NCBI GenBank assembly: GCA_964462325.1
Contig: CAYWYQ010000002.1
Span: 3,943 to 64,088 of the forward strand
Direction: 5' to 3'
Origin: an uncultured Gammaproteobacteria bacterium
Lineage (GTDB): Bacteria; Patescibacteriota; Patescibacteriia; UBA9934
Length of the DNA stretch: 60,146 nt
The notes beneath the pieces are model-generated. The model worked only from the letters and a program-made list of their open reading frames with translations, ran no database searches and had not been told where the DNA came from. Positions within the stretch are counted from its first letter, which is position 1. Every line of letters begins with the position of its first letter. Positions 2,742 through 47,504 of this stretch are shown here, one piece after another. A program made the translations under genes and the position numbers.

Positions 2742-3713
2742 TTAGAGCGTCTTTATAGAAATACGTGAACGAGATTTTTTAGAAGGGACTTTTTTTAGAA
2801 TACCTTGTTTTGCTCCAAACGATTGAATAACGGATTCGGCATTCAATATACCGATCTGAATTGCTTCCTCTATACCTTTCCTCAGGAGTAGTGATGCAAC
2901 AAAACTAGATCCAAGTGCATCTCCTGCACCAGTCCTTGAGATGGCGTTTACGCCTGTAGGACGCCCATGATATACTTTTCCATTTTTACAAACATGCACG
3001 CCTCGTATGCCGTCAGATACTAATACAATATTGTCTTTGTATGTCAGATTTTCACAAAGTTTTTTTGATTCTGCATTTGTTCCAGATAGAATTCTTGCCT
3101 CCTCTTTATTAACTAAAAGAACATCAACGAGTTTCAAGAGTGGGTTTAATTTTCTTTTTCCGCTTTTTAATTCCTTTGATCCTGGATTCCATGCAATACG
3201 TATTCCTTTTTTCTTCGCCTTTGTGAAAACCATGCGAGCGAGAGCAATGTCACCACCTAACGATGATACATAGAGCCACTTTGTATTACAGGTGTTAATG
3301 GGTATATCTGCTGCAGAGAAATTATTTGAAACACCGCGATGCACCAGTACAGATCGTTCACCATCTGTCGTTGTTAGAAGGGTGCTGTATCCGGTCATTC
3401 CTTTTTTTAGAATGCGGATGAATTTGGTACTCACCTTATATTTTTTTAAATCCGATAAAACAGCATTTCCGGGAGCATCATTTCCGATGCGTGTAATGCA
3501 AGCTGTTTTTAATCCAAGGCTCGCAAATGTGGCGGCCGTATTTGTCCCTCCACCTCCAGTCGTAAGATAAAAATCATCAACCTCGATTTTACTACCGAGA
3601 GAGACACATTCGCCAACTCCCGTTCGAAATTTTGTTGAACGGATGATTTGAAAATCACGAGAGACAAGAAATGCATCCTGAACCGCAGATCCTATAGTGA
3701 TTACATCAAACAT
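2742..3713 (-). CDS. PfkB-family carbohydrate kinase (ribokinase-like)
   Basis: 323 aa. N-terminal GGGGTNTA and C-terminal TGAGDALGSSF motifs. Confidence 0.8.
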   Translation of the reverse strand: MFDVITIGSAVQDAFLVSRDFQIIRSTKFRTGVGECVSLGSKIEVDDFYLTTGGGGTNTAATFASLGLKTACITRIGNDAPGNAVLSDLKKYKVSTKFIRILKKGMTGYSTLLTTTDGERSVLVHRGVSNNFSAADIPINTCNTKWLYVSSLGGDIALARMVFTKAKKKGIRIAWNPGSKELKSGKRKLNPLLKLVDVLLVNKEEARILSGTNAESKKLCENLTYKDNIVLVSDGIRGVHVCKNGKVYHGRPTGVNAISRTGAGDALGSSFVASLLLRKGIEEAIQIGILNAESVIQSFGAKQGILKKVPSKKSRSRISIKTL

Positions 3714-3760: not shown

Positions 3761-4399
3761 TCATGATATACACATATCTCTCTCATGCCTTAATGGCCCA
3801 AGTATTTCTTCTGAAGGCTTATAATAATTAAAAGTAGCATAAGGATTATCGAGTTCAAAACTTACGAGTGCACGAGTTCCTCCTTGAGCACCAATAACGA
3901 GTGGCTGTGCGCATGGGTGTGGCGAGTCATCTATTGGTTGAGCGAGCATGATAAGTTCATTTCCATCAATTCCAATAACTCTTAGAATTTCATGCATGTC
4001 GATATCTTCCTTTCCGGTTAAGCCAGATTCACCCTCAACAGAAAATGTTTTATAGAGTCTTTCAAAGTTGTGATTTTCATTATCGTATCGATACACGCTT
4101 AATAAATATGAATTATCATCCTGTCTTGAGGAAGTTGCAAAATAAGAAATATTTTCTTCATAAGGCGAATAGACGATGCCAGATTCAAAGAACTGATTTG
4201 GTTCCAGTTCGCGAATAGAAGAAAGAGCAATTCGATAATTTGCCCATTCTTTTGGTTCTAGGTATGCGAATACTACCTGCTGTTCTACAGAATATTCTTC
4301 TTGCACGGCAAGGTCAGGTGTTGACGGTGCGTCATAGGACTTATCGCAACCTGCACCGATAAGGAGTAAAGAACAAAAAATAAGAAGATATTTATACAT
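3761..4399 (-). CDS. lipoprotein of unknown function, paralog of 1024..1701
   Basis: Signal peptide with lipobox LLLIGAGC. Shares C-terminal motifs with 1024..1701. Confidence 0.8.
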   Translation of the reverse strand: MYKYLLIFCSLLLIGAGCDKSYDAPSTPDLAVQEEYSVEQQVVFAYLEPKEWANYRIALSSIRELEPNQFFESGIVYSPYEENISYFATSSRQDDNSYLLSVYRYDNENHNFERLYKTFSVEGESGLTGKEDIDMHEILRVIGIDGNELIMLAQPIDDSPHPCAQPLVIGAQGGTRALVSFELDNPYATFNYYKPSEEILGPLRHERDMCIS

Positions 4400-5426: not shown

Positions 5427-6398
5427 TTATAGATCAGTTACCTTATATTTTTTATTACTGCGTAATCGTTTTTGTATTTGCGCTGTTGAAAGAAGTCCTG
5501 CGGTTGGCCCGATATGTTGTACAACCTCTGAGGCGTTTACACTACCCCAAGCAAGGGCTGTTTTTTTATCTTTCTTGTGAAGTATCGCACCTAAGAAGCC
5601 TGTTAGAAAAGCATCCCCTGCGCCTGTAGCTTCTTTGCGCGCACCTGGAAACATTGGTGCAAAATCCATATTCTCACCATCAAAACTATATGCTCCTTTT
5701 TTTCCATTTGTGATAACCACTATTCCTGGTCCTAATTGCATGAGCTCTACAAGAAGTCGTTTCATGTTTCCGTTTTTGGTCTTTTTTAATAATTGTTCTG
5801 CTTCCAGTTTATTCACAACGAGAATATCTGTGACACGAATGAGTTTATAAATGATATTCTTCCGCTCTTTTATTTGTAGTGACCCTGGGTTAAAAATCAA
5901 TCTCGTTTTAGATTTTTCAACATGTTTTACTAAACGTTCAAACATTTTTTCATACCCTTCTCCGAGTTCAGAAAGATGAATCCATTTCGAGGTAGGAATT
6001 GTTCTTGGAAGCTTAAACTCGATATCGCTGTGCGAGGCTAGTTGCGTTGATTCGCCCTTGTAATTGAGTACGGCAGAAAAGCTACTTTTCTTTCCTTTTT
6101 TAGATGAAATATATTGCGTACCTACCCCCAGTTTTTTTAAATAGCTAAGTGCCTGCTCGTAAATACTGTCTTGCCCCATGACAGAATAAACTGCAGACGT
6201 CTTCTTCATTTTTTTTATACCAATGGCAACATTGGGAGCACTACCGGCGATCTGTGTATCTGTTTCTTCGACGGGAATCTTTTTCCCATGTGCAATGCAA
6301 AGTTCGCAGGTAAGGCGATCGGCTCTGCAAAGTACACTTGCATTTGGGATTTTTATAAAAGCATCTAATTTGATATCTCCTATTGTGAATACATCCAT
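5427..6398 (-). CDS. PfkB-family carbohydrate kinase (second copy)
   Basis: 323 aa with the TGAGDAFLTGFLG anion-hole motif. Only 1 nt separates it from fba. Confidence 0.8.
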   Translation of the reverse strand: MDVFTIGDIKLDAFIKIPNASVLCRADRLTCELCIAHGKKIPVEETDTQIAGSAPNVAIGIKKMKKTSAVYSVMGQDSIYEQALSYLKKLGVGTQYISSKKGKKSSFSAVLNYKGESTQLASHSDIEFKLPRTIPTSKWIHLSELGEGYEKMFERLVKHVEKSKTRLIFNPGSLQIKERKNIIYKLIRVTDILVVNKLEAEQLLKKTKNGNMKRLLVELMQLGPGIVVITNGKKGAYSFDGENMDFAPMFPGARKEATGAGDAFLTGFLGAILHKKDKKTALAWGSVNASEVVQHIGPTAGLLSTAQIQKRLRSNKKYKVTDL

Positions 6399-8995: not shown

Positions 8996-9994
8996 TGCGC
9001 GTTTTTGTTTTATAACCTGCTTCGTTGCTTTTATAATAGCAGGAGCTGTTAACTGAAAGTGTTCTAATAATTCATTTGGTTCACCAGATTCCCCAAATCT
9101 ATCTTGCATGCCTATGCGATGAATAGGAACAGGGTAATGTTCTGAAGTAAGTTCGCAAACAGCGGAACCCATTCCAGCTGCCACTTGAGCTTCCTCTACC
9201 GTTACGATGCATTCGCAGTCCTTCGCCGCTTGTAAAATAGTCGTTTCATCCATCGGTTTTAAAGATGCATTATTAATCACCCGCGCTTCAATGCCGAGTT
9301 TAGATAACTCTTCTGCTGCAAGAAGGCATTCATACAGGAGGGGGCCGCAGCCGATAATGGCGACATCATTTCCATTTCTGAATATCTGAGCTTTACCTAC
9401 TTCAAATGGAGTCGATTCCGTTGTAAATACGGGACTTTTTTCTCGAGCAAATCGAATATAAACAGGGCCATCAATTTTTGCAGCTTCAATTGTAGCTTTT
9501 CGTGTTTCAATAGCATCGCATGGAATAAAGACTTTCATTTCAGGGAGTACGCGCATAAGGGCAATATCTTCTAGCATCTGATGTGTTGCTCCGTCCGGAC
9601 CGACTGAAACACCGGCATGCGCACCAACAATTTTAAGATTTGTTTTTTGTAGGCATCCTGTTGTACGAATCTGTTCCCAATTTCTTCCAGGAGAGAAACA
9701 AGCATAACTTGAAATGAACACGGTTTTTCCGGCTAATGCCATTCCGGCTCCTACGGCTGCCATAGATTGTTCTGCGACGCCAAATTGTACAAATCGATTT
9801 GGAAATTGTTTTTTGAATTCGGTACTTCGTGTTGAGTCCGTTAAATCAGCGCAAATAACATAGATATTAGGATCATTTTTTCCCGCAAGAACAATGCCTT
9901 CACCGTATCCATCACGGGTGGGGATTTGCTTCAACATGTCTTTATTTCTCCAACCTTTATTTAATTTTGGATTTGGATATTTCATACTATTCAC
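8990..9994 (-). CDS. tkt: transketolase, C-terminal (pyrimidine-binding) subunit
   Basis: 334 aa with FGVAEQ, GPDGATHQ and EDIA. It overlaps the N-terminal subunit gene by 8 nt, the split-tkt arrangement. Confidence 0.9.
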   Translation of the reverse strand: MNSMKYPNPKLNKGWRNKDMLKQIPTRDGYGEGIVLAGKNDPNIYVICADLTDSTRSTEFKKQFPNRFVQFGVAEQSMAAVGAGMALAGKTVFISSYACFSPGRNWEQIRTTGCLQKTNLKIVGAHAGVSVGPDGATHQMLEDIALMRVLPEMKVFIPCDAIETRKATIEAAKIDGPVYIRFAREKSPVFTTESTPFEVGKAQIFRNGNDVAIIGCGPLLYECLLAAEELSKLGIEARVINNASLKPMDETTILQAAKDCECIVTVEEAQVAAGMGSAVCELTSEHYPVPIHRIGMQDRFGESGEPNELLEHFQLTAPAIIKATKQVIKQKRAK

Positions 9995-10892
9995 ATTCTG
10001 AAGTTATGCATCCGCCGAGTGTTCGCAGATCCTTTAGTGCTTCTTTCAATTGATCTTCATGCTTCACTTCATCCTCGGGTCCTTTTCCGGGAGGAGCACC
10101 ATGCCACGTGTAATCACCCTCCATGAAATCGACTCCCTTTCCAGGAATAGTGTGTGCAATAATAACAACGGGCTTTTCCCAAACACTTTTTGCATAATTG
10201 CATGCATCGATAAATTCACGAATATTATGACCATCAATTTCCACAACCTCGAAATTAAAACTTTGGAATTTCTCTCGCAATGGTTCAAGGGGCATGACAT
10301 CTTCGGTGTATCCATCAATTTGAATATTATTTCTATCGATAATCCATGTCAGATTATGAAGATGATGTTTCCCAGCAAACATGGCAGCCTCCCAAGTAAT
10401 TCCTGCTTCTAGTTCTCCGTCGGACATGATGCAATAGACATGCCAAGGCTTACCTTCTTGTTTTCCAATATAGGCCATACCCGCAGCCTGTGGCGACCCA
10501 TCACCGAGTGGTCCCGATGTATTTTCGAGTCCCTTCATATGTGTGATTTCTGGATGACCCTGTAAAGGAGATCCAAGTTTACGCAGGGTACTCAATGTCT
10601 TTTTTGGAAAGTATCCAGCATGCGCCATTGCAACATAACGAATAGGAACAACATGTCCGCAAGAAAGTAGTAGCCGATCCCGCTCTTCCCATTCCGGTTT
10701 TTTTGGATCATGGTAAAGAATGTGTCCGTAGAGTGTTGCGAATATATCAGCAAGTCCAAGCGGACCAGCAGAATGGCCGCTTTTTGCCTCTGTGAGCATT
10801 TTGAGCAAATCTTGACGCATATTATTTGCACTCTTTTCAAGCTCAAGAAGTTTTTGTTCGGTCAGGGTAGGGATGGATCGAATATCTGGCAT
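9987..10892 (-). CDS. tkt: transketolase, N-terminal (TPP-binding) subunit
   Basis: 301 aa with GHSAGPLG, a GDG..EG-type MSDGELEAG segment and IIDRNNIQIDG. Confidence 0.9.
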   Translation of the reverse strand: MPDIRSIPTLTEQKLLELEKSANNMRQDLLKMLTEAKSGHSAGPLGLADIFATLYGHILYHDPKKPEWEERDRLLLSCGHVVPIRYVAMAHAGYFPKKTLSTLRKLGSPLQGHPEITHMKGLENTSGPLGDGSPQAAGMAYIGKQEGKPWHVYCIMSDGELEAGITWEAAMFAGKHHLHNLTWIIDRNNIQIDGYTEDVMPLEPLREKFQSFNFEVVEIDGHNIREFIDACNYAKSVWEKPVVIIAHTIPGKGVDFMEGDYTWHGAPPGKGPEDEVKHEDQLKEALKDLRTLGGCITSECE

Positions 10893-11161
10893 ATGTACGT
10901 ATTATAACCCAATGACCGTACAAGGAAGAAATGCTATAATTGACACTGTATGCAGTACCATCAAGAGAGCATTGGAGCTTCATGCCCGAGCAAGATGAGA
11001 GGGAGCATAAGCTCAATTCTTCACAGAGATTATTTGAGCTGACAAAGCATTGAAAAGATGAGGTTGGCTTGAGGGCTGTTGCTGGCTTTGTCTTGGATTT
11101 GAATAAAGAAGAGTTTCGGTCATTACTGCAGGATATGGAGCCGCTACATAGAGCTGAAATG

Positions 11162-11578
11162 CTATTTAATTTGTGCCGATTTTGCGCGCAGTGTTTCTTG
11201 AATTGCTGTTTCCGCCCCCTCAAGCCCTAAAAAGGCTTGTACGCTAGGAAGGGTACTCTGGCTTTTATAGATATCGATAATACCAGGTAAAATAGCGCCT
11301 AAACTTTGTTTTGTAATTTTTAAGGCCGCTTCCTGTTTATTGTAAACATTCCATATATTCGATGGATCTTGCGCCTCAAATGCCGTTTGCTTTCCTTCTG
11401 TGGCTAATATTAGCCATTTTTCTTGTAAGGACTGTAAAATATGGTATAAATTAGCCCTTTTTATAGACGTTTCATTCAATAAATCACGTACAATAGAACG
11501 CCCTTTTCGCAATAATAACTCATATATTTCTACTTCATGGTCATTTAAACCCAACTCTTTTAGTAGTGGAAATTGCAT
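11162..11578 (-). CDS. TrmB-like winged-helix transcriptional regulator (short; N-terminal domain only)
   Basis: LGLNDHEVEIYELLLRKG..IVRDLLNETSIKRANLYHILQSLQEK is the TrmB-type HTH pattern. The 138-aa ORF is followed by about 270 nt with no ORF. Confidence 0.55.
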   Translation of the reverse strand: MQFPLLKELGLNDHEVEIYELLLRKGRSIVRDLLNETSIKRANLYHILQSLQEKWLILATEGKQTAFEAQDPSNIWNVYNKQEAALKITKQSLGAILPGIIDIYKSQSTLPSVQAFLGLEGAETAIQETLRAKSAQIK

Positions 11579-11869
11579 AATAGTGATCGATTTCTACTTA
11601 TTTTCAATTAAAAACTGACAAAATACTCATATTTATATTAGCTAATATTAGTCAAAATATGCCAGAAAACACTTGATAGAACTTGTCAATTATGTTAATG
11701 AGTAGCTATCGAGGATGAAGAACCGAAACGGAAGAAATACAAGACAGAATATTACAACAATTTGAGAGAGCTCAAGTTCCTGGGTAAAAGGAACATATAA
11801 AGTATAACACTTTATGAAAGCGCATATGCTGATCTCCCCACTAGAAATCAATATATGCGCTTTTTCTAC

Positions 11870-13115
11870 GGAAAAAGTACTACGACGTAACAGATTTACT
11901 TATATGGAATGTCCGAGACGCAAGTCTGAGAGAGATGACGTTCTATGTAGAGAAACTGTTTTCTCAAACCCTTCATTCTACTAATAATGAAGCGTTGGTC
12001 TTCAAAGGAATACATTAATCGCCTTCGGGCAAGGGAAACAACGGAATGACTCCCAATGTCTATGAGAGGCATTGTGGTAAAGAGTGCATCCTTCTTCGAC
12101 TCCCTTCTAGGTCGAGTCAAGGAGGAATCAGTCCTTACCACGGCAATCGAGGAATAGCAAAGAGGTGGTGACACCTGCTGGGCCAAGGATGAACATTCAC
12201 AATTGAATATTCATTAACGAAAGTTACCCGTTTTTGCTTTGCAAAAATGAGAGAGACTTCTAGTTTCAACCGAATATACACCCTTCATTCCGCTGCGACC
12301 ATTTGGCCGATCAGCGGGTCAATGAACGTATATTGCAGGTGTCACCGGAGGGAGGGTAACTTTCCTTGCCCATTCTGCTCACGATGCGGACAAGGTTCAA
12401 CCTTCTCCAAATTGAAGTACCGACTAAACCGCTCTGCGGTATAAGTCGGACTTCTCAAAGAATCGCAGATTTCTCGCGAGCAAAATGGGCAAATAACTTC
12501 CTATATATGGCAGTGCGTCAAGGTTAAACCTTGTATGTAATACGGAAAGGTTGAACCTTTTCCGAATCGAAGTACCGACTGAATCAGTCAAGCTGATTGA
12601 AGTCGGACTTCTCATGTCGAACTTGCTGAGAATCGCAGATAATTTTCTGCATGGATGTAAAAGGTATGTGGGTATATTTGGGAGTGAGTTTGGAACTCTC
12701 TCCCGACTCACTTCTAAATAGCAAAGCAAATCTTTTATATCCATGCGGGGAATCATCCCCTAAAAAAAGCCCTGAAAAGGGCATGGAGGTCCAATGGACC
12801 AGTTCGACACCCCTCGCGCCGAGCGCGAGGAAAGTTCCATCACCTTGCGAAAGGTGATGGAATCCGTTTTTCTCATCGTGGCGGTAATCGCCACGATGAG
12901 TTGCGGAGCCTTTATGGCATCCGCGCCGCTGTTTTTTGCAACGGAAACCAGCGTGCAGACGCTGGTGATTGCAGGCAATGTCCTGCTTGGCGCCAGCCTC
13001 GTGTTGGCTGGCGCCTGGATCGGAGGTGAACTCCTCCGAGACATGGCGACGGGAGAATTCTTCCGTCGCTGAAACGTGCAGGGCGTAGTCACACTCGACT
13101 ACGCCCTGCAAAATT
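11870..13115 (+). ncRNA. candidate large, highly structured ncRNA or palindrome array (unclassified)
   Basis: GC-rich island in an AT-rich genome with no credible ORF. Dozens of stems, a duplicated module with compensatory changes, and 11-12 bp long-range helices. UUCG/GNRA loops read on the + strand only. The ends are approximate. Confidence 0.4.
12794..13072 (+). CDS. doubtful: 92-codon hydrophobic (2-TM-like) ORF inside the hairpin array
   Basis: GGAGG at 12785-12789 with only a 4-nt spacer. The product has two hydrophobic segments, but the ORF is almost fully covered by perfect palindromes and both strands are open here. Confidence 0.25.
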   Translation: MDQFDTPRAEREESSITLRKVMESVFLIVAVIATMSCGAFMASAPLFFATETSVQTLVIAGNVLLGASLVLAGAWIGGELLRDMATGEFFRR

Positions 13116-13127
13116 TCTAACATTAAT

Positions 13128-13156
13128 ATTGACAGGAAGCAAAAATAGAATATACT
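13128..13156 (+). promoter_or_regulatory. sigma70-like promoter (TTGACA, 16-nt spacer, TATACT)
   Basis: TTGACA at 13128-13133 and TATACT at 13150-13155 in an intergenic region, with no ORF downstream before the terminator at 13249. Confidence 0.45.
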
Positions 13157-13248
13157 GAAAAATCAATGATGTCGGTCGACAATCGGAAATGAAAGTTTAT
13201 CATCTCTCTCGATGAACCGTCATGTCTTGAGTCGCCGGCCTCTAAAAT

Positions 13249-13281
13249 AAAAGAACTCCCATAAGGGAGTTCTTTTATTTT
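13249..13281. terminator. bidirectional rho-independent terminator
   Basis: AAAAGAACTCCC-ataa-GGGAGTTCTTTT: a 12-bp stem with A/T runs on both sides, downstream of the minus-strand gene that ends at 13299. Confidence 0.8.
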
Positions 13282-13298
13282 GATAATATTTCCTTGAA

Positions 13299-14117
13299 TT
13301 ACTGTACAAAGATCGCTCCTGTACTTGATGAATTTAATCCATCGAAGAATGTGTAGGTTCCTGCTTCATCAAAACTGCGAATCTTTGATGCTCCTGGTTG
13401 AATGGTTCCTGTACCCCATTTTAGATTATCTGCGGTAGCATTATGCGTTGTTGATCCGGTATTTGTGAATCGGACCCCTTGTCCAACATCGATTGTGACA
13501 TCGATTGGGCTAAATCCATTGTCCGTAATAGAAATTTCTGCTGGCGCAACGAGTCCTTTATCGTCATCGATTGAACTTGTTCCGGCTTCGACGCTTGCCA
13601 CGTCATACTGACTTCCGCTTGTGATTTCTGAACCAATTGCATAGGTATTACCGAAGAATGAATCAGGCATATCATCGATCATGGTATTCCATGCAGATCC
13701 ATAGAGTTCTACAGCAATTGCTTCTGATCCTACATGTCGAAGGACTCCACCCTCTGAAACAGCATAGGTCTTAGGGTCACTATTGATTTTGAGCATGCGT
13801 GCACCTGGCTTGTAGGAAATATTTCCACCAATCTGTACTTTTGGTAAATCTGAATCTGCAACGGTTTTCACATCATCGAAATTGTCATACCAAGTAAAGT
13901 AGGTTCCGCTGGTTGGGAATACATATCGGTATCCGTCTGCCCCTAGATAATAAACAGCAGGAAGTGTTTCTCCGCGGAAAAGGTCACCGGCGCTGAGGCT
14001 TTCAATGGTAGAAAGGGCTCGAGCTTGTGGTGCGGCTGCGGTAAAGTAGCCCGCGAATGCGATAGACGTCGCAATTGCGATAAGTGCGAAGTGCTTAAAT
14101 GATAGTGTAGTACTCAT
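13299..14117 (-). CDS. secreted protein with C-terminal cupredoxin-like domain (function unknown)
   Basis: I trimmed the start to the ATG at 14117, giving the signal peptide MSTTLSFKHFALIAIATSIAFAGYFTAAAPQARA. The C-terminus (ISITDNGFSP..VRFTNTGSTTHN..GTYTFFD) resembles plastocyanin-like folds. Confidence 0.7.
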   Translation of the reverse strand: MSTTLSFKHFALIAIATSIAFAGYFTAAAPQARALSTIESLSAGDLFRGETLPAVYYLGADGYRYVFPTSGTYFTWYDNFDDVKTVADSDLPKVQIGGNISYKPGARMLKINSDPKTYAVSEGGVLRHVGSEAIAVELYGSAWNTMIDDMPDSFFGNTYAIGSEITSGSQYDVASVEAGTSSIDDDKGLVAPAEISITDNGFSPIDVTIDVGQGVRFTNTGSTTHNATADNLKWGTGTIQPGASKIRSFDEAGTYTFFDGLNSSSTGAIFVQ

Positions 14118-14831: not shown

Positions 14832-15284
14832 TTAATTTGATTCTTCGATTGATTGTAGTTGCTGTAATCGACGTCGGTGACGTGCTTTATTTGAAAACGG
14901 CGTTGTAAGGAATATGTCGGTAATAGCAAGGGGGTCATCATTCGTCTGCAGACGTCCCGGTAATGAGAGAATATTTGCATTATCGTCTTGCCGCATCGTG
15001 GCGGCGGCTTCTTTTGAATAACCAATGCCGGCGCGTATACCATCAAATTTATTTGCAGCGATCATAATTCCTTCCGCATTTCCGCAGGCGAGAATTCCGA
15101 ATGAATTTGGATGGCTTAAAACTGCTTCTGCCACTTTTTCGGCATAAACAGGGTAATCATCTGATGGGTTGAGTGTGTGCGCGCCAAGATCCTCAACATG
15201 GAATCCTTGTAATTCCAAGTGTTCTTTAATGCTATTTTTTAAATCAAAGCCCGCATGATCGGCTCCAAGAAATACCGTTTGCAT
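14832..15284 (-). CDS. rpiB: ribose-5-phosphate isomerase B
   Basis: 150 aa with GADHAGFDLK and ILACGNAEG motifs. Confidence 0.9.
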   Translation of the reverse strand: MQTVFLGADHAGFDLKNSIKEHLELQGFHVEDLGAHTLNPSDDYPVYAEKVAEAVLSHPNSFGILACGNAEGIMIAANKFDGIRAGIGYSKEAAATMRQDDNANILSLPGRLQTNDDPLAITDIFLTTPFSNKARHRRRLQQLQSIEESN

Positions 15285-15934: not shown

Positions 15935-16113
15935 CCACCTAGCAAGTTAGCTTATAGCACGCTTTCCGTCATTTCGACCGAGTAAAGGGAGTGGAGAAAT
16001 CTCCTGTAGATTTGTGCCACAAGAAGATCCTAGATCGGGGTCGGGGATGACGATTGCCATGAACGGAAGATCGGTAAACCAAATCGAGGTTGAACCTCGA
16101 GGTTCAACCTCGG
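15935..16113. repeat. mosaic REP-like intergenic repeat block upstream of ileS
   Basis: Contains ttagccacctagc, gtggagaaatctcctgtag (15991-16009), gatcggggtcggggatgacg, and a perfect 28-nt palindrome CGAGGTTGAACCTCGAGGTTCAACCTCG (16085-16112). Confidence 0.8.
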
Positions 16114-16187: not shown

Positions 16188-19070
16188 ATGTCAGAGCAAA
16201 AAACATCAAAACACAGCATAGAAGAAGAACGGGTATTATCATTCTGGAAAGAGCACGATATTTTTAAGCGATCAATTTCAGAACGGAGCGAAGGTAACCC
16301 GTATGTTTTTTATGATGGTCCTCCATTTGCGACAGGTTTGCCGCATTATGGTCATTTAGTTGCGAGTACGATGAAAGATGTTGTTCCTCGTTATTTTACG
16401 ATGCGCGGATTCCGCGTTGAACGCACATGGGGATGGGATTGTCACGGTTTGCCTATTGAAGCAATCGTCGAAAAGAAGCATGGCCTGAAGAATCGACAGG
16501 AGATTGAAGAAATGGGCGTTGCTGCGTTTAATGAAAGTTGTGATGCGGAAATCATGACCTATGCGGAGGATTGGAAGCAGGTGATTCATCGCCTTGGCCG
16601 TTGGGTGAATATGGATGAGCCTTACATGACGAAGGATTTGCAATTCATGGAATCGGTTTGGTGGGCCTTTTCGGAACTCTATAAAAAGGGTCATATTTAC
16701 GAAGGGTATAAGGTAATGCATGTTTCGCCGGCGCTTGAAACTGTACTTTCAAATATGGAAGTCAGCGATAATTACAGTGACCTTACAGATATTTCTGCTT
16801 ATGCGAGTTTCACACTTACAAGCGGAGAGTATGAAGGAGTAAAAATGATTGCATGGACAACAACACCTTGGACGCTTCCAGGGAATGCATTGCTTGCGGT
16901 TGGAAATACGATTGAATATACTCTTGTTGTATTTGAGGATGCAAAATATATTGTTGCGAAAGAACTTCTTGAAGAAGCTTTTGAAGGGAAAGAGTATCAA
17001 GTAAAGTCAGAATTGAAGGGTTCTGATCTTGTGGGGGCGTCGTATGAGCCGCTTTTCCCGTATTTTGCAGATCATAAAAACGCTTTCCGAGTTGTACATG
17101 CAGATTTTGTGACGACGGATGACGGAACAGGGATTGTGCATATCGCCCCAGGATTTGGAGAAGATGATTTGGAGCTTGGAAAGAAAGAGGGTGTTGAGCC
17201 AATTATGCATGTGCAAATGGACGGACGCTTCATTCCGGAAGTCGAACAGTCATTGGTAGAGGAGGGGTATGATGTAAAAGATTGGCCGGTCAAGAAAAAG
17301 GATGACAATATGCATGTCGATATTGAAATCATCAAATGGCTTGCACATAAAGGAAAGCTCTTTGCGAAGAAAAAGATTAAACATAATTATCCATTATGTT
17401 GGCGTACGGATTGTGCGCTTATCAATTACGCGACGACTTCCTGGTTTGTAAAAGTAGAAGATATTCGCGACACACTTGTAAGAACAAACAAAGAAATACG
17501 CTGGGTGCCGGAACATATAAAAGAAGGAAGATTCGGGAAGGGACTGGCACAGTCTCCGGATTGGTCTATTTCTCGTTCACGGTATTGGGGAACACCTATG
17601 CCGCTTTGGCGTTCAGAAGATGGCGACATTATTGTCGTTGGTTCCGTAGATGAACTGGAAGAATTAACAGGGACACGTGTTGATAATCTGCATAAGCATA
17701 TTGTAGACGAATTAACGATTGAAAAGGACGGGAAAACCTATACAAGGATTCCAGAAGTACTGGACTGTTGGTTTGAGTCTGGCTCCATGCCATACGGACA
17801 AATGCATTATCCATTTGAGAATAAAGAAAAATTTGACCGTGGTTTCCCGGCAGAATTTATTGCCGAGGGGCAGGATCAGACACGTGCGTGGTTCCATAAA
17901 TTACATGTACTTTCAAATATTTTATTTGGAATGCCCGCCTTTAAAAATGTTATCGTAAATGGAATTGTTCTTGCGGAAGACGGAAAAAAGATGAGTAAAC
18001 GATTACAGAATTATCCAGATCCAACAGAGGTAATGAATACATATGGTGCAGATGCGGTTCGGTACTATTTGATGACGAGCTCTGTTGTTCATGCAGAAAA
18101 TTTACGATTTAAGGAATCGGATGTTGATGAAGTGGCAAAGAAGTTTATTGCCATTTTGAGAAATGTCGTAAGTTTCTATGCACTCTATAAAGAGCATGAC
18201 GATGGACGAGAAGCGAGCGGAGAACATGTACTAGATAAGTGGATTTTAGCAAGACTCAATCAGGCACTAGCAACTGAGACAGAAGCAATGGACAATTATG
18301 ATTTGCAGGCGGCATCAAGACCTCTTCAACATTTTGTTACTGATTTGTCGACATGGTATGTGCGTCGTTCGCGTGATCGTGTAAAAACAGATGGGGAAGA
18401 TCAAAAAGAGGCACTTGCAACGCTTCGGACCGTTCTTGATACCTTCAGTAAGATGATTGCGCCATTTATGCCATTCCTAGCAGAGATGGTATATCAGGAA
18501 ATAGATGGGTCATATGACAGCGAAGAGAGACCATCTGTTCATTTAGAAATGTGGCCAGAGGCACAAGAAGTGGATGAAACTATTCTTGAACAAATGGGAG
18601 AGGCTCGCGCGCTTGTGAGTCGCATTCTTGATGCGCGCGAAGAGACGGGGCTTCCTGTGAAGCAAGTTCTTGGATCTGTACAGGTCACGACACCAGCAGG
18701 ATCAGTACGACCAGAAATTCAGGAAGTCATTTTGAACGAGGTAAATATAAAAGAAATGCATGTAGAGGAGGGGGAGCTTTCTGCTAAGCCAGATTTTACT
18801 TTGACACCAGAACTCAAACGAGAAGGAATGTTGCGGGAATTATCTCGGAAGATTAATGGAATGCGCAAAGATGCAGGACTTACGATTGATGACCGCATTA
18901 CGGTAAATGTATGGTCCGAATCTACCGAGGTGAATACGATGCTTGATGAGCATGAAGGTGCATTAAAAGATGCTGTTTTGGCACATGAAATTGTACGCGC
19001 GAAGCCAGATGTGGATGGAGTGCAAGTACGAATCATGGAGCAAGAAATTGAGTTGGGTATTTGTGATTAG
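16188..19070 (+). CDS. ileS: isoleucyl-tRNA synthetase
   Basis: 960 aa with the HYGH (PHYGHLV) and KMSKR signatures, a CP1 editing-domain-like insertion and no in-frame stops. Confidence 0.95.
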   Translation: MSEQKTSKHSIEEERVLSFWKEHDIFKRSISERSEGNPYVFYDGPPFATGLPHYGHLVASTMKDVVPRYFTMRGFRVERTWGWDCHGLPIEAIVEKKHGLKNRQEIEEMGVAAFNESCDAEIMTYAEDWKQVIHRLGRWVNMDEPYMTKDLQFMESVWWAFSELYKKGHIYEGYKVMHVSPALETVLSNMEVSDNYSDLTDISAYASFTLTSGEYEGVKMIAWTTTPWTLPGNALLAVGNTIEYTLVVFEDAKYIVAKELLEEAFEGKEYQVKSELKGSDLVGASYEPLFPYFADHKNAFRVVHADFVTTDDGTGIVHIAPGFGEDDLELGKKEGVEPIMHVQMDGRFIPEVEQSLVEEGYDVKDWPVKKKDDNMHVDIEIIKWLAHKGKLFAKKKIKHNYPLCWRTDCALINYATTSWFVKVEDIRDTLVRTNKEIRWVPEHIKEGRFGKGLAQSPDWSISRSRYWGTPMPLWRSEDGDIIVVGSVDELEELTGTRVDNLHKHIVDELTIEKDGKTYTRIPEVLDCWFESGSMPYGQMHYPFENKEKFDRGFPAEFIAEGQDQTRAWFHKLHVLSNILFGMPAFKNVIVNGIVLAEDGKKMSKRLQNYPDPTEVMNTYGADAVRYYLMTSSVVHAENLRFKESDVDEVAKKFIAILRNVVSFYALYKEHDDGREASGEHVLDKWILARLNQALATETEAMDNYDLQAASRPLQHFVTDLSTWYVRRSRDRVKTDGEDQKEALATLRTVLDTFSKMIAPFMPFLAEMVYQEIDGSYDSEERPSVHLEMWPEAQEVDETILEQMGEARALVSRILDAREETGLPVKQVLGSVQVTTPAGSVRPEIQEVILNEVNIKEMHVEEGELSAKPDFTLTPELKREGMLRELSRKINGMRKDAGLTIDDRITVNVWSESTEVNTMLDEHEGALKDAVLAHEIVRAKPDVDGVQVRIMEQEIELGICD

Positions 19071-19074
19071 CTGT

Positions 19075-19320
19075 TAGCAAATTAGCCACTTAGCTTTTAG
19101 CCCGTAGCGCAAGGACGTGCTTTATGTGATCCGCCGTAGCTTTAGCGTAGGCGGAGAGTGGAGAAATCTCCTGTAGGGGTCACCGAGGTTCAACCTCGAG
19201 GTTGAACCTCGGGAGGGTGATCTGTGCAAAAATAGCATTATTTAATCACTTTTGGGTACTCGAGGTTGAACCTCGGTGGAGATAATGTATAGAGGTTGAA
19301 CCTCGAGGTTGAACCTCGGG
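19075..19320. repeat. mosaic REP-like intergenic repeat block downstream of ileS
   Basis: TAGC-periodic stretch (ttagccacttagc), gtggagaaatctcctgtag (19158-19176), a 30-nt palindrome at 19183-19212, a single unit at 19261-19275 and tandem units at 19292-19320. Confidence 0.8.
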
Positions 19321-34439: not shown

Positions 34440-34500
34440 ATGGACGCATTGTACCAAAAAACCGAGCATATGGCTCGGTTTTGGACTTTTATTATTGAAC

Positions 34501-35130
34501 TTACTCTAATGTAATTGAATTCAAGATGAGATCCCATTCATCGTCTAAATCACTGTTACCAACACCTCTTTGGTACTCTAATTTGTAATTATTACCATCA
34601 TTATCTTGGAATGATGCCGTTGTGTGCGACCAGGGTCCACCCAATGTGTTCTCAGAGATGTTGTCGACAGATACATTGTTAACTGTTATGTCATTAATCT
34701 GCACGGAAGATTTTTCAAAATTTACGAAATCTTCAGAACTGTAATCAATGATTATTGGAGTTTTTCCATTTGCGGTGAATGTAATTGGAGTGTATAACCC
34801 GACATCTCCTGGTGCAAAGTAAACAAGCGGATCTGGAGAAAGATTGGCTGAACCAACGCCTATTTCAAAGCCTCCATTCATATGCCACCCGAGTGGATAG
34901 CTGAAATGTACATTTCCCGCATCGAATGTTCTTGTGATCACTCCCATATCGTTCTTAAACACAGGGGTGTCCCCATCATCGTTATCTGTGTCTGCGTCGA
35001 CTATTACTTCTGTTGAGTCATTGTCAACAGATGGTGCTGTAGCATCTGCAGAAAGTAATAGGACTAAATTAACAATGGACAGTATGAAGGCAGTCGTTAC
35101 AATGGTGATAAGTATTTTAAAATGATGCAT
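34501..35130 (-). CDS. secreted/TM-anchored hypothetical protein (copy 1)
   Basis: 209 aa with an N-terminal hydrophobic anchor and an acidic D-rich linker. Identical to 35225..35854. Confidence 0.75.
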   Translation of the reverse strand: MHHFKILITIVTTAFILSIVNLVLLLSADATAPSVDNDSTEVIVDADTDNDDGDTPVFKNDMGVITRTFDAGNVHFSYPLGWHMNGGFEIGVGSANLSPDPLVYFAPGDVGLYTPITFTANGKTPIIIDYSSEDFVNFEKSSVQINDITVNNVSVDNISENTLGGPWSHTTASFQDNDGNNYKLEYQRGVGNSDLDDEWDLILNSITLE

Positions 35131-35224
35131 AAGGTATAATATTTAATCTATGAGAATAATACCATTTTTTGCTAGCAACAAAAAACCGAGCATATGGCTC
35201 GGTTTTGGACTTTTATTATTGAAC

Positions 35225-35854
35225 TTACTCTAATGTAATTGAATTCAAGATGAGATCCCATTCATCGTCTAAATCACTGTTACCAACACCTCTTTGGTAC
35301 TCTAATTTGTAATTATTACCATCATTATCTTGGAATGATGCCGTTGTGTGCGACCAGGGTCCACCCAATGTGTTCTCAGAGATGTTGTCGACAGATACAT
35401 TGTTAACTGTTATGTCATTAATCTGCACGGAAGATTTTTCAAAATTTACGAAATCTTCAGAACTGTAATCAATGATTATTGGAGTTTTTCCATTTGCGGT
35501 GAATGTAATTGGAGTGTATAACCCGACATCTCCTGGTGCAAAGTAAACAAGCGGATCTGGAGAAAGATTGGCTGAACCAACGCCTATTTCAAAGCCTCCA
35601 TTCATATGCCACCCGAGTGGATAGCTGAAATGTACATTTCCCGCATCGAATGTTCTTGTGATCACTCCCATATCGTTCTTAAACACAGGGGTGTCCCCAT
35701 CATCGTTATCTGTGTCTGCGTCGACTATTACTTCTGTTGAGTCATTGTCAACAGATGGTGCTGTAGCATCTGCAGAAAGTAATAGGACTAAATTAACAAT
35801 GGACAGTATGAAGGCAGTCGTTACAATGGTGATAAGTATTTTAAAATGATGCAT
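35225..35854 (-). CDS. secreted/TM-anchored hypothetical protein (copy 2)
   Basis: Translation identical to 34501..35130. Confidence 0.75.
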   Translation of the reverse strand: MHHFKILITIVTTAFILSIVNLVLLLSADATAPSVDNDSTEVIVDADTDNDDGDTPVFKNDMGVITRTFDAGNVHFSYPLGWHMNGGFEIGVGSANLSPDPLVYFAPGDVGLYTPITFTANGKTPIIIDYSSEDFVNFEKSSVQINDITVNNVSVDNISENTLGGPWSHTTASFQDNDGNNYKLEYQRGVGNSDLDDEWDLILNSITLE

Positions 35855-36397
35855 AAGGTATAATATTTAATCTATGAGAATAATACCATTTTTTGCTAGC
35901 AACAAAAAACCGAGCTATATGCTCGGTTTTCCGATTCAGAGCCTTGTCCGTGCAGAAAACGGGATGCGCTAGATTCCGGCTCGGTGGCCGGAATGACAGA
36001 GCGCGCTAAAGGCTAAGTAGATAATCGACTCATTGTTATTCTACTCGATCTGAGGTTCCGACTGAATCAATACGACTTAAGGTCCGACCTCTCGATTGAG
36101 GTACGGACCTTTCAAGGGCACCAATAGACAAACGGAACCTGTCCGAGCAATAGACTGGATGTAATTTGTTTGAATCATCGAGCACTGAGCGGAAGTGTAC
36201 TAGAACGTACAGTGCAGCGAAGCGCACAGATGTGAAAACAAAGTACGCCAGTCTATAAGCGGATGCCCTGTCCGCGCAGAAAACGGGATGATATTTCCTT
36301 GAAGATTAAGAAAATACCGCAGATGTACTAGAAAAGTACATTGAGGATATTTTTGCAAATCTGAATGGATAGATCGCCCATTTTCAAGCGGAATGTC

Positions 36398-42154: not shown

Positions 42155-42255
42155 AGAGATGACCAATAAAAAACGCAGAATATCTCATTCTACGTCACGG
42201 TAAAGCCATGATTGGAAAATCATAATGCAGGTTGTGCTGACGATAGCTACATCGA

Positions 42256-42284
42256 TTGACATTAGGCATTTTTATTGATAATGT
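42256..42284 (+). promoter_or_regulatory. sigma70-like promoter of the cassette (TTGACA, 17-nt spacer, TAATGT)
   Basis: TTGACA at 42256-42261 and TAATGT at 42279-42284, about 30 nt upstream of the methyltransferase ATG. Repeated at 43943-43971. Confidence 0.5.
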
Positions 42285-42315
42285 GACCTCTGCTCTTTAA
42301 CAGAAGGGAGATGGT

Positions 42316-43083
42316 ATGAGTCAGGATCATTTTGATGAAATCGCTTGTACGTATAGTGATATGCGTCCATCGAACCAGGAACTCTTGCGCTTGGTGTATG
42401 ACCGAGCTGAATTGAAACCCGGCATGTCGCTATGGGACATCGGTTGCGGTCCAGGGGGTGATTTGGCCTGGTTTTCTTCGAAAGGGCTGAGCATTATGGG
42501 GATTGACCGCTCTGCGAAGATGGTACAGATCGCATGTCGTAGACTTGGCGAATACAAAGTGCTTTGTGGTGACGTCACGGATCTACTCAAGCAGGAAGAT
42601 GATGTGAATATGAGAATCGCTACAGATGCTTTTCTCTTTAAATTCTCATTGCACCTCATGGATGATCCAGTGAATGTGTTGCGATTGGCGTGGAATCATG
42701 TTCCCGTTGGTGGCTGCATTGTCATTGTGTCGATGCTTTACGATCAACAAGTCAAGAGTCTGCCGACGCATGGCTACTTTCCTTCGATGGATCGTGATGT
42801 TCTGCGAAGCGTCAATGATCTTCGCGCGACGATACTCTCTGTGAGAGAGGAGTTGGATGCAGATCTTCGGATCTTCAATACCACATTGTGGGAGGAGGCA
42901 CTAGACGATAATTGGATTCAACGTGTAGAGAATCGTTATATGTCAACACTCAGGAATATACCGGAGGATGAGTGGGAGCAAGGGCTTGCAGATCTCAAAG
43001 ATAATTTGAAAGTTTGGACCAGCGTCAACGATGCTCCATTGGTGAGTGTGGAAGGGTCTATTGCAATTCTGCGAAGGAGGTGA
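42316..43083 (+). CDS. class I SAM-dependent methyltransferase (cassette copy 1)
   Basis: 255 aa with motif I LWDIGCGPGGD. RBS GGGAGATGG lies upstream. Confidence 0.8.
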   Translation: MSQDHFDEIACTYSDMRPSNQELLRLVYDRAELKPGMSLWDIGCGPGGDLAWFSSKGLSIMGIDRSAKMVQIACRRLGEYKVLCGDVTDLLKQEDDVNMRIATDAFLFKFSLHLMDDPVNVLRLAWNHVPVGGCIVIVSMLYDQQVKSLPTHGYFPSMDRDVLRSVNDLRATILSVREELDADLRIFNTTLWEEALDDNWIQRVENRYMSTLRNIPEDEWEQGLADLKDNLKVWTSVNDAPLVSVEGSIAILRRR

Positions 43084-43086
43084 AAT

Positions 43087-43824
43087 GTGAACGTCGAACT
43101 AAAGTGGCTGGCGCGTCAACAGATGTCTTCTGGTCAGTTCCCGACTACGGTTTTGTACAAACCAACAGGTCTTGTTCGGAATGTGTCTACGATTTGTCCA
43201 ACGTACTTGATCGTATTCATACTCACACTATTGCGTGAGCGGAAAGGTTCTTCGGATCCTGTGCTTGATCGCATGGTCAAACAAGGTTTGGATTTTCTCG
43301 AGGAGAGAATGTATGTCGATCCAGTGGAGGGCTTTCGTGCTTGGCACTTCAATGCCTTTTATCCGCCGGATTGGGAAGAGACATGCTGGTGTTCCTTGCT
43401 TCTTGCAAATGCGGGACGTATGGGGCGTGACGAGCTGGATCCTCTGCGGCGACTTCTCGATGAAAATACTACGGACATGGGGATTGGTGTTTGGCTGAAA
43501 GATCCGTATACGCCAAATAACGGAGCTGCAAATACTTTTGATCCCATTGTAGCAATGTCGATTCAGTATTGGCTTCGCCGACTGTACGATGATCATATCG
43601 AATCGGTTGATGACTTTGTCGCGTCGGCATTGAAAAAGAAGATGGCGTCACTGTACTATGATCGTCAATTTCAAGAGTTTTTCTACTGGATAATGGGGCT
43701 GCGATGTGATGCACCGTCTCTTGATCGAGATGATCATATCGTGTTCCATAATGCGCGTCGAAAACGCTTGAATTATGCATCAGAAGAAGTGTGGCGAGCA
43801 GCTGAACTACTCATGTCTACTTGA
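43087..43824 (+). CDS. alpha/alpha-toroid, prenyltransferase/terpene-cyclase-repeat-like protein (cassette copy 1)
   Basis: GTG start 6 nt after AGGAGG. LKWLARQQMSSGQFP (QW-like repeat) and PPDWEETCWCSLLLA (compare the D.DDTA motif) suggest a squalene-cyclase/prenyltransferase-type toroid. Assignment is tentative. Confidence 0.55.
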   Translation: MNVELKWLARQQMSSGQFPTTVLYKPTGLVRNVSTICPTYLIVFILTLLRERKGSSDPVLDRMVKQGLDFLEERMYVDPVEGFRAWHFNAFYPPDWEETCWCSLLLANAGRMGRDELDPLRRLLDENTTDMGIGVWLKDPYTPNNGAANTFDPIVAMSIQYWLRRLYDDHIESVDDFVASALKKKMASLYYDRQFQEFFYWIMGLRCDAPSLDRDDHIVFHNARRKRLNYASEEVWRAAELLMST

Positions 43825-44002
43825 AGGGTCAATAGGCCTTTTTTTATTTGAATAAAAAAACGCAGAATATTTCATTCTACGTCGCGATAAAGCCATGATT
43901 GGAAAATCATAATGCAGGTTGTGCTGACGATAGCTACATCGATTGACATTAGGCATTTTTATTGATAATGTGACCTCTGCTCTTTAACAGAAGGGAGATG
44001 GT

Positions 44003-44770
44003 ATGAGTCAGGATCATTTTGATGAAATCGCTTGTACGTATAGTGATATGCGTCCATCGAACCAGGAACTCTTGCGCTTGGTGTATGACCGAGCTGAATT
44101 GAAACCCGGCATGTCGCTATGGGACATCGGTTGCGGTCCAGGGGGTGATTTGGCCTGGTTTTCTTCGAAAGGGCTGAGCATTATGGGGATTGACCGCTCT
44201 GCGAAGATGGTACAGATCGCATGTCGTAGACTTGGCGAATACAAAGTGCTTTGTGGTGACGTCACGGATCTACTCAAGCAGGAAGATGATGTGAATATGA
44301 GAATCGCTACAGATGCTTTTCTCTTTAAATTCTCATTGCACCTCATGGATGATCCAGTGAATGTGTTGCGATTGGCGTGGAATCATGTTCCCGTTGGTGG
44401 CTGCATTGTCATTGTGTCGATGCTTTACGATCAACAAGTCAAGAGTCTGCCGACGCATGGCTACTTTCCTTCGATGGATCGTGATGTTCTGCGAAGCGTC
44501 AATGATCTTCGCGCGACGATACTCTCTGTGAGAGAGGAGTTGGATGCAGATCTTCGGATCTTCAATACCACATTGTGGGAGGAGGCACTAGACGATAATT
44601 GGATTCAACGTGTAGAGAATCGTTATATGTCAACACTCAGGAATATACCGGAGGATGAGTGGGAGCAAGGGCTTGCAGATCTCAAAGATAATTTGAAAGT
44701 TTGGACCAGCGTCAACGATGCTCCATTGGTGAGTGTGGAAGGGTCTATTGCAATTCTGCGAAGGAGGTGA
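44003..44770 (+). CDS. class I SAM-dependent methyltransferase (cassette copy 2)
   Basis: Translation identical to 42316..43083. Confidence 0.8.
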   Translation: MSQDHFDEIACTYSDMRPSNQELLRLVYDRAELKPGMSLWDIGCGPGGDLAWFSSKGLSIMGIDRSAKMVQIACRRLGEYKVLCGDVTDLLKQEDDVNMRIATDAFLFKFSLHLMDDPVNVLRLAWNHVPVGGCIVIVSMLYDQQVKSLPTHGYFPSMDRDVLRSVNDLRATILSVREELDADLRIFNTTLWEEALDDNWIQRVENRYMSTLRNIPEDEWEQGLADLKDNLKVWTSVNDAPLVSVEGSIAILRRR

Positions 44771-44773
44771 AAT

Positions 44774-45511: not shown

Positions 45512-45558
45512 AGGGTCAATAGGCCTTTTTTTATTTGAATAAAAAAACGCAGAATATT

Positions 45559-45885: not shown

Positions 45886-46140
45886 GCTTCCTCCAATGTG
45901 GCGCAGGAAAAGTACATGAATACTAATGAACGGTCAAATAATGAAACTCCACGACCTAACAGCCGTGGTATCTTTATATTTCAAGCTGCGCTTGTCCTCC
46001 TGCCGTCATCCTTTGTCATCCCGGACTTGATCCGGGATCCATCGATCTCGTATTGCGCTAGATTCCCGCTTTCGCGGGAATGACAGGGGGGATTAAGCGG
46101 AAACTCACGGCCTAACGGCCGTGGTTTTGGTTGGATACAA

Positions 46141-47379: not shown

Positions 47380-47504
47380 AATTATTGAATTTATTATTTT
47401 TGCGACCTGTTCATCCGTAGCTCATAGGGTGATGGATGAATAAAGGAATCTGGCATATTCGATTAGCACCGGATCCCGGATCGGGGTCCGGGATGACGGG
47501 AGGA

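Follow-up and report, generated by a model that had tools for sequence, protein, structure and literature searches.

A hairpin-saturated insertion beside tktN in a Patescibacteria genome, read tentatively as a structured leader and a hairpin-locked membrane-protein mRNA

The window analysed here (60,146 nt; contig CAYWYQ010000002.1, positions 3,943 to 64,088) contains, between tktN and a cupredoxin gene, a hairpin-saturated locus (11870-13115, ~1.25 kb) consisting of a 5′ part of ~0.9 kb and a GC-rich block that holds a + strand open reading frame (ORF) of 92 codons, ORF92 (Table 1). A first-pass annotation made from the letters alone had described the locus as lacking credible coding sequence and as a candidate giant ornate RNA or a novel palindrome array. 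The locus is probably composite, rather than one giant non-coding RNA, and the reading put forward here, tentatively, is a + strand unit comprising a long structured leader and a hairpin-locked mRNA for a small membrane protein. G+C content is 0.41 in the window, 0.44 at 11870-12759 and 0.57 at 12760-13115. The counts by which the first-pass annotation had marked a switch in composition (12 and 38 G+C per 60 nt) are exact, and the stems that it quoted are all present (11950-65, GAGAAA/TTTCTC; 11971-92, CTTCATT/AATGAAG; 12021-30, C(UUCG)G; 12290-12317, CCGCTG/CAGCGG; 12680-12704, GGGAG.GAGTT/AACTC.CTCCC). Its statement that this GC-rich signature otherwise marks only rnpB and the tRNAs was too narrow, as G+C content of at least 54% is also found at ~45600 (a small membrane-protein ORF) and ~59850.

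Table 1 Features of the cupredoxin-tktN gap and folding z-scores of segments of the locus (z, + strand minimum free energy against dinucleotide shuffles).
Feature	Position	Strand	Details
Non-coding remnant, left part of insertion	10893-11161	-	Between truncated TrmB-like gene and tktN start; ~270 nt
Truncated TrmB-like helix-turn-helix gene	11162-11578	-	138 aa, N-terminal domain only; Pfam PF01978, E=1.2e-11
AT-rich spacer	11579-11816		27-30% GC; presumed divergent promoter region, no convincing promoter identified
Terminator-like hairpin	11817-11869	+	GCGCATAT...ATATGCGC, then TTTTTCT; inverted repeat I7, 20 nt, 85% complementary
Domain 1, string of local hairpins	11870-12160	+	GCAA and UUCG tetraloops; 68-nt hairpin at 12074-12141; z=-3.2
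Domain 2, multibranch	12167-12346	+	Perfect 12-bp closing helix 12167-12178/12335-12346 (inverted repeat I20); z=-5.6
Domains 3 and 4, paralogous modules	12366-12640	+	Module A, 12392-12470; module B, 12547-12640; z=-7.4
Long imperfect hairpin	12638-12757	+	57-nt arms; minimum free energy -63.2 (+) vs -44.7 (-) kcal/mol
Hairpin GCCCT-GAAA-AGGGC	12769-12782		On + strand, GNRA loop directly 5′ of ORF92 ribosome-binding site
Ribosome-binding site and ORF92	12786-13072	+	GGAGG, 12786-12790; ORF, 12794-13072, 92 aa
Chain of ~10 consecutive hairpins	12812-13069		Inside ORF92; sequences all different; stems 5-13 bp, all Watson-Crick
Six chain hairpins with 7-13 bp stems	12812-30, 12834-63, 12872-12900, 12947-66, 12989-13015, 13020-39		Part of the chain inside ORF92
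Perfect 14-bp GC-rich hairpin	13077-13110		Inverted repeat I14; 5 nt after ORF92 stop; no T-run on either side
Small-RNA-like unit, right part of insertion	13129-13285	+	Promoter TTGACA-16-TATACT at 13129-56, 11/12 consensus positions
Folding z-score	11870-12160	+	-3.2
Folding z-score	12160-12350	+	-5.6
Folding z-score	12350-12640	+	-7.4
Folding z-score	12760-13115	+	-15.2

Folding energy sets the locus apart within the window. When 150-nt windows were folded across the 60 kb and their energies regressed on G+C content, the five most over-stable all lay within 12601-13125, and comparison of the + strand minimum free energy (MFE) with dinucleotide shuffles gave z-scores from -3.2 to -15.2, bearing out the hairpin saturation first described. 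Six perfect hairpins with stems of 8-14 bp are found in 300 nt of the locus, and the 80 related-genome loci used for comparison (1.35 Mb) contain no cluster of three or more such hairpins within 250 nt. Stability beyond that of shuffled sequence, and the strand-specific motifs described below, are two properties that the locus shares with structured RNAs in general. The view that it matches no known RNA family also held: Rfam at gathering score identified rnpB and two tRNAs in the whole window and nothing in the locus, and at E<=10 both strands of 11500-13400 gave sub-threshold chance matches only, mostly on the terminator at 13243-13282. Families without a match in the locus include GOLLD, ROOL, OLE, HEARO, raiA, group I and II introns, tmRNA, SRP, 6S, T-box and riboswitches. 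A group II intron was rejected on this result and on the lack of any hairpin like domain V.

ORF92 has G+C contents of 0.60, 0.47 and 0.70 at codon positions 1, 2 and 3, with position 1 rich in G and position 2 rich in T, and its three-base periodicity (chi2=28.7) is not below the median for size-matched pieces of real genes in the window (23.9). In a hairpin-preserving null, where the sequence was randomised with all base pairs of the fold kept (20,000 trials), this periodicity was reached once (P=5e-5). The frame was open in 2.7% of trials, and 0 of the 540 open cases were as periodic as ORF92, so that neither the hairpins nor the requirement for an open frame can account for the periodicity. 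In a sliding profile the periodic block (12820-13060) reaches the level of the adjacent cupredoxin gene. The GGAGG motif is 4 nt before the ATG, and the GGAGG-type sites of this genome (3 of 35 genes) are 3-5 nt before theirs; motif and AUG are partly sequestered in a hairpin, GGUCC-AAU-GGACC. The predicted product has a charged N-terminus, two hydrophobic segments (two hydropathy peaks >1.6) and a charged C-terminus, and is modelled by AlphaFold (AF2, single sequence) as a two-helix hairpin with a predicted local distance difference test score (pLDDT) of 75, compared with 41.5 for an antisense ORF used as a control. Antisense ORFs over the GC-rich block have His/Arg-rich translations, and the minus-strand ORFs that overlap ORF92 resemble the shadow frames of a gene rich in G+C at third codon positions (GC3). 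ORF92 and ORF179, a spurious minus-strand ORF, have each been called as a gene, by different assemblies. With an open frame, periodicity, a start signal and a protein-like product, ORF92 has the properties of protein-coding sequence, and the first-pass statement that no credible coding sequence is present has to be withdrawn.

Among ~35 gene starts in the window (e.g. 2742-3713, 3761-4399, 5427-6398, 9987-10892 and 14832-15284), many have a TATAAT or TATACT box and no ribosome-binding site, with the -10 box ending 5-8 nt before the ATG; judged from these starts, the genome seems to use mostly leaderless mRNAs.

The chain of hairpins lies inside ORF92, and about two-thirds of the nucleotides of the GC-rich block are in perfect hairpins. 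The hairpin at 12834-63 (codons 14-27) has the loop GCGA followed by CCGTTTTTCT and, with CCGUUUUUCU after it, scores as a + strand terminator, while that at 13043-72 is an interrupted stem of 11 pairs in the fold, with a perfect 7-bp outer stem (13046-52/13063-69). The 14-bp hairpin just beyond the stop codon forms the end of the block. The MFE of native ORF92 is -162.8 kcal/mol, compared with -106.9 +/- 5.6 for synonymous permutations (z=-10.1). Folding of the chain far exceeds what coding needs, and the sequence of ORF92 appears to satisfy two constraints at once, coding and structure. An excess of G+C at third positions would be expected from selection for stable stems on a coding frame, and a GC-richer donor would give the same pattern. 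Consistent phasing of the hairpins relative to the reading frame was rejected, as nine hand-checked hairpins (12812-30, 12835-62, 12872-12900, 12903-24, 12947-66, 12971-86, 12989-13015, 13020-39 and 13046-69) are spread 3/3/3 over the three phases. Each chain hairpin is single-copy, with no second copy in the window. Because the stems are purely Watson-Crick, without wobble pairs, they give no RNA-specific signal, and the chain is strand-neutral.

The 5′ ~900 nt have no coding signal (periodicity of ORFs in the 5′ two-thirds of the locus, P=0.2-0.8; sliding profile at background over 11600-12760) and carry modest + strand RNA signatures. Immediately 5′ of this region, the terminator-like hairpin at 11817-11869 could be an attenuator or the end of a short upstream transcript. 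In domain 2 the centroid structure is identical to the MFE structure. Modules A and B, which make up domains 3 and 4, each run from a AAGGTTSAACCTT palindrome through a bulged hairpin (GAAGT-A-CCGACT...AGTCGGACTTC) to AGAATCGCAGAT, are represented by repeat families D1, D2, D3 and D8 and inverted repeats I2 and I8, and can form alternative long-range helices (12366-84/12474-92 and 12382-12404/12547-69). Their apical stems differ yet pair (CCGC/GCGG in A, AAUCAGU/GCUGAUU in B). The syntenic terminator-promoter gap of one relative (L096) has a homologous hairpin (TTAAGTCCGACTTAATC...GATTTAAGTCGGACTTAA; general form AAGTCCGACTT-N-AAGTCGGACTT), a perfect hairpin with 15-bp arms (TTAAGTCCGACTTAA-N10-TTAAGTCGGACTTAA) at 2236-2279 of the L096 sequence (Logan SRR30207613 contig), corresponding to the module hairpins at 12412-12453 and 12568-12610 of the window. 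Across A, B and the L096 hairpin, shape is kept and apical sequence changed, and this is the sole comparative signal. At the same intergenic site another relative (L014) has a different perfect palindrome of ~26 bp.

Strand-specific signals in the leader point to RNA. In the full-length fold of the + strand, four of ~9 tetraloop hairpins with stems of at least 4 bp have GNRA loops (GCAA, GUAA, GAAA and GCGA), and a weakly closed UUCG and another GAAA loop are also present; the minus strand has no special tetraloops, in agreement with the first-pass observation that these read correctly on the + strand only. The background rate among MFE hairpins elsewhere in the window is 8.3%, against which a chunked fold (3/7) gives P=0.015 and the full-length fold (4/~9) P ~0.004 by estimate. 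The rnpB gene, used as a control, has the same strand asymmetry (4/7 vs 0/5). The long hairpin at 12638-12757 is 18 kcal/mol more stable on the + strand and folds well only as RNA of that strand. For this hairpin, the gain from permitting G-U pairs is -21.9 on the + strand and -2.5 on the minus strand, and transition mismatches number 9 G.T vs 1 A.C; G-U evidence for RNA is confined to this hairpin. On these features a + strand, RNA-level reading of the leader is favoured. The hairpin at 12769-12782 is followed on the minus strand by T7 and scores there as an intrinsic terminator, which may act on antisense or read-through transcription.

These RNA signals would also suit an unlikely alternative, in which the entire locus is a single large ornate + strand non-coding RNA that might work with proteins, like OLE, ROOL and GOLLD, and ORF92 is an untranslated by-product of GC-rich stems. 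Extreme z-scores run throughout the locus, GNRA and UUCG loops are confined to the + strand, folding of 12638-12757 depends on G-U pairs, ORF92 is an orphan, and overlapping ORFs on both strands of a GC-rich block are a typical artefact of composition. Against this, the periodicity of 12794-13072 goes beyond hairpin-preserving randomisation (P=5e-5), and the spacing of the ribosome-binding site and a product that is protein-like relative to the control favour translation. No Rfam match was found, and the locus is missing from all relatives, unlike the conserved families with which it was compared. Its architecture, mostly perfect local hairpins like beads on a string, does not have the junctions and loops that are conserved in known ornate RNAs. 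Of the original assignment to the GOLLD/ROOL/OLE class, the extraordinary structure and the absence of an Rfam family stand, but the GC-rich third looks coding and no conserved class emerges.

The window has 10 copies of the palindrome AGGTTSAACCT where 0.85 would be expected; three are in the locus and seven flank the IleRS gene. As its centre is 1 nt, the core, GGTTSAACC, is a DNA-type palindrome that forms no hairpin on its own. Around the IleRS gene (16188-19070) the palindrome is 15 nt long (CGAGGTTSAACCTCG), with two copies upstream (15989-16112) and five downstream (19156-19320), both inverted and direct, and an identical 21-nt sequence, GAGTGGAGAAATCTCCTGTAG, is found on each side of the gene; the arrangement suggests a cluster of operators or a family of REP-like elements. 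Short GC-rich hairpins of a REP-like type are also found at 46018-46081, 47473-47494 and ~16033-16052 (ATCCCGGA-loop-TCCGGGAT and ATTCCCGC-TTTC-GCGGGAAT), often by GTCAT.

Dispersal of AGGTTSAACCT, with its 1-nt centre, is consistent with a second alternative, also improbable in our estimation, that the locus is a DNA-level palindrome array or mobile-element scar, i.e. extragenic palindromes (REP/BIME-like, operator sites or single-stranded-DNA hairpins) gathered in a hot spot, with any function in protein binding, recombination or replication being exerted by DNA. The chain stems are perfect Watson-Crick helices without wobble, the overall count of G.T vs A.C mismatches has no strand bias, L096 has an AAGTCSGACTT hairpin in the corresponding intergenic position, flanked by terminator and promoter, the cargo of this hot-spot gap differs by lineage, and the neighbouring TrmB gene is truncated. 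However, REP/BIME arrays are copies of one unit, whereas the chain hairpins are unique in the window; strand-specific tetraloops and the G-U-rich long hairpin indicate RNA; and this alternative does not account for the coding periodicity of the GC-rich block. The novel palindrome array offered by the first-pass annotation as a fallback is still a live rival for the locus.

The wider setting is that of an insertion. A transketolase scan of GTDB genomes put the window in Patescibacteria, close to Candidatus Uhrbacteria metagenome-assembled genomes (TktN identity 77-81%), and each relative recovered has the order rpiB-rpe-cupredoxin-tktN-tktC. The cupredoxin-tktN gap is ~2.4 kb in the window, compared with 57-147 nt in eight relatives (L053, L010-L013, L019, L096 and L100), where it consists of a terminator and a -10 box and nothing else. 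The same gap is occupied by a membrane ORF of 125-142 aa in L014-L018, a 192-aa ORF in L104 and a 172-aa ORF in L105, none resembling the insert of the window, and a search for homology between ORF92 and the small membrane ORFs of L014-L018, L104 and L105 found none. In the window the cupredoxin terminator (13243-13282) and the -10 box adjoining the tktN ATG are still recognisable. As the gap in relatives is short or filled with other cargo, and the flanking terminator and -10 box are retained, ~10911-13242 is an insertion (~2.3 kb) specific to this Uhrbacteria-like lineage and missing in every relative recovered. It occupies a hot spot of variable content, bounded by the cupredoxin terminator and the tktN promoter. 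Its left boundary, at ~10911 by comparison with L053, is just upstream of the tktN -10 box TTATAAT.

The left part of the insertion carries a TrmB-like gene divergent from the structured region, with weak three-base periodicity. Full-length TrmB homologs of L019 and L015 (249-251 aa) align with residues 5-137 of its product only, and since the alignment covers just their first ~134 residues the gene is truncated; nothing resembling their C-terminal domain was found at 10893-11161. It is probably a gene fragment or encodes a stand-alone helix-turn-helix protein. Among 5.8 billion proteins the fragment matched itself and a 99% variant.

At the right end of the insertion, the small-RNA-like unit would give a transcript of ~120 nt ending at the bidirectional terminator at 13243-13282, a perfect 17-bp hairpin that also serves the cupredoxin gene. 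Neither an Rfam match nor a target was found for this unit, and a link with the hairpin locus was rejected, as the complementarity between them is at chance level (-54.3 vs -52.4 +/- 3.9 kcal/mol for shuffled sequence).

In the 80 related loci, 11579-13298 had no homolog by blastn or nhmmer, and the locus (blastn) and ORF92 (tblastn) had none in phage and plasmid collections. ORF92 matched only itself among 1.84 billion representative proteins and had no significant match in Pfam, PHROGs, NCBIfam or PADLOC, its model had no Foldseek match among viral structures at E<=0.001, and the protein search with ORF179 returned only self. A metagenome scan with the module signature GAAGTACCGACN{6,36}GTCGGACTTC gave six chance matches in GC-rich coding DNA; the bulge-free L096 form would have been a better probe. 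Four viral scans, made with the module, with each of the two palindrome families and with a chain hairpin, yielded no real match. The closest relatives of the cupredoxin, among 5.8 billion proteins, are 76% and 73% identical and both come from sequences without the insert, the 73% relative being L096. Exact-protein look-ups identified contigs with the locus in several metagenome samples and assemblies, all 100% identical over 8-11 kb, so that one clonal lineage alone is known to carry it. The contig is present in JGI samples 3300007504, 3300007512, 3300008954 and 3300008735, in runs SRR8062318 and SRR9166051, and in ENA ERZ23498677 and ERZ23498963.

A third alternative is inert foreign DNA, in which a fragment acquired recently, perhaps from a donor of higher G+C content or from a degraded element, would be decaying beside a truncated regulator gene, its hairpins having come with the donor sequence or arisen by template-switch mutation. 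This would fit the mosaic, foreign composition, the truncated and weakly periodic TrmB gene and the restriction to one lineage, but is very unlikely given that decay would erode perfect 12-14 bp stems and a 92-codon frame, both of which are intact, that duplicated modules still pair despite sequence change, and that the locus is identical in all recovered assemblies from several samples.

Comparison with known systems identified OLE RNA and oapA as the nearest architectural analogue. The commonest immediate downstream neighbour of OLE RNA, which has been reported from 730 species, is oapA, whose product is predicted to be a membrane protein that forms dimers and has four transmembrane helices, and OapA binds palindromic sites in OLE RNA (PMC12265935). 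The locus likewise has a large structured RNA-like region followed directly, on the same strand, by a membrane-protein gene. This resemblance is architectural only: the locus has no match to the OLE covariance model and is known in one lineage, ORF92 has two helices and no detectable family where OapA has four helices, and no part of the locus is as structured as its membrane-protein coding sequence.

Type I toxins (hok/sok, tisB/istR-1, fst/RNAII) are small hydrophobic membrane proteins, usually <60 aa with one helix, encoded by stable, folded mRNAs with an occluded ribosome-binding site, and their loci are found in variable or horizontally acquired regions, often without detectable homologs. 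The small hydrophobic ORF92, its structured mRNA and its occluded start are similar, but ORF92 has 92 aa and two predicted helices, the leader is ~0.9 kb, and folding takes the form of many independent perfect hairpins in the coding sequence, not a 5′-3′ fold-back. No minus-strand promoter for an antitoxin was found beside ORF92, the sole hint being the minus-strand terminator at 12782-12769. Staphylococcus RNAIII/hld is a multi-hairpin, dual-function RNA encoding a small membrane-active peptide, in which the coding part is minor and conserved C-rich loops pair with targets; the locus would likewise be a multi-hairpin RNA with a small membrane peptide, and its loops have no common motif. GOLLD, ROOL, HEARO and raiA, like the locus, measure ~1 kb or longer, are densely folded and contain GNRA tetraloops; the locus differs in lacking a covariance-model match, conservation, association with tRNA or phage genes and a multi-way junction core, and in having a coding signal in one third of its length. 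REP/BIME and Rickettsia palindromic elements form clusters of palindromes, which can lie between genes or interrupt a gene without breaking its frame. Two families of short palindromic motifs likewise recur in this genome or a relative, but the chain has no repeat unit, its hairpins being all different and single-copy in the window, and most other stems are unique. The locus belongs to none of the families compared.

A further and rather remote reading extends the OLE likeness to a new RNA-protein system of Patescibacteria, where an ornate + strand RNA of ~0.9-1.25 kb would work with the two-helix membrane protein encoded at its 3′ end. Such a system could be a membrane ribonucleoprotein of the OLE/OapA kind, or else a dual-function RNA of very large size, with the chain being both coding sequence and scaffold.

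Under the reading preferred here, of a leader and a hairpin-locked mRNA, the ORF-free, strongly folded leader (~11870-12760, ~0.9 kb), built partly from genome-specific palindromes and a duplicated hairpin module, would precede a gene (12794-13072) that is led by a ribosome-binding site, encodes a predicted two-helix membrane protein and has its mRNA capped by the 14-bp hairpin. We infer that the unit is transcribed, that ORF92 is translated and linked to the leader, and that its product may be toxic. RNA structure would then act on the expression of a small, potentially harmful membrane protein, both gating and stabilising it, as in type I toxin and holin mRNAs: partial pairing of the ribosome-binding site and AUG may restrain translation start, the terminator-like hairpin at codons 14-27 may be part of the gating, and the very stable stems may slow ribosomes and block exonucleases.

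Several points weigh against this reading. No promoter was found for a leader-ORF92 unit, and no antisense or complementary small RNA. With ORF92, the leader and the TrmB fragment having no homolog in the collections searched, and every copy being 100% identical across samples and assemblies, neither purifying selection nor covariation is demonstrable. The all-Watson-Crick stems of the chain suit DNA-level palindromes equally, and imperfect helices outside 12638-12757 have 2 G.T vs 8 A.C mismatches (11 vs 9 in total). The GC3 of ORF92 (0.70) is foreign to the host, whose genes have GC3 of ~0.3, a terminator-like hairpin lies within the ORF, and truncation of the adjacent TrmB gene suggests a decaying region.

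Other features were observed elsewhere in the window. A GC-rich (~55%) ORF of 108 aa with hydrophobic segments, just short of the 110-aa threshold used for the gene map, is found at 45559-45885 (minus strand), and its PMQILKNYR motif is presumably PQ-loop/SemiSWEET-like. Two tandem duplications, at 34455-35930 and 42168-45547 (start-to-start distances of 724 nt and 1687 nt; reported identity over 300-nt stretches of 100% for family D1 and 99% for D2), copy a gene of 209 aa and a pair of genes (255 aa and 245 aa), respectively, each with terminator hairpins. A tRNA-Ile with a UAU anticodon, an unusual mode of AUA decoding in bacteria, lies at 48545-48621. A GC-rich segment of ~220 nt at the window end, with no Rfam match at E<=0.1, lies between the two copies (59820-59873 and 60095-60146) of a direct repeat that is 52 nt or longer (AAATTGGTTTACTTCAACGCTAAATGAAAAAGACCCAGTCTTGCGACTGCGTCAT).

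If the leader and ORF92 do form the proposed unit, a single sequence would be subject to two constraints to an extreme degree, behind a leader near 1 kb, which is surprising for a genome that is tiny and mostly leaderless and whose intergenic regions are very short. It would provide a natural test of how much RNA structure a coding sequence can bear, and a test case both for the silencing of small, possibly toxic membrane proteins and for accessory cargo in the insertion hot spots of episymbiotic Patescibacteria. Should leader and protein instead form a complex, the OLE/OapA principle would gain a second example, from an unrelated phylum.

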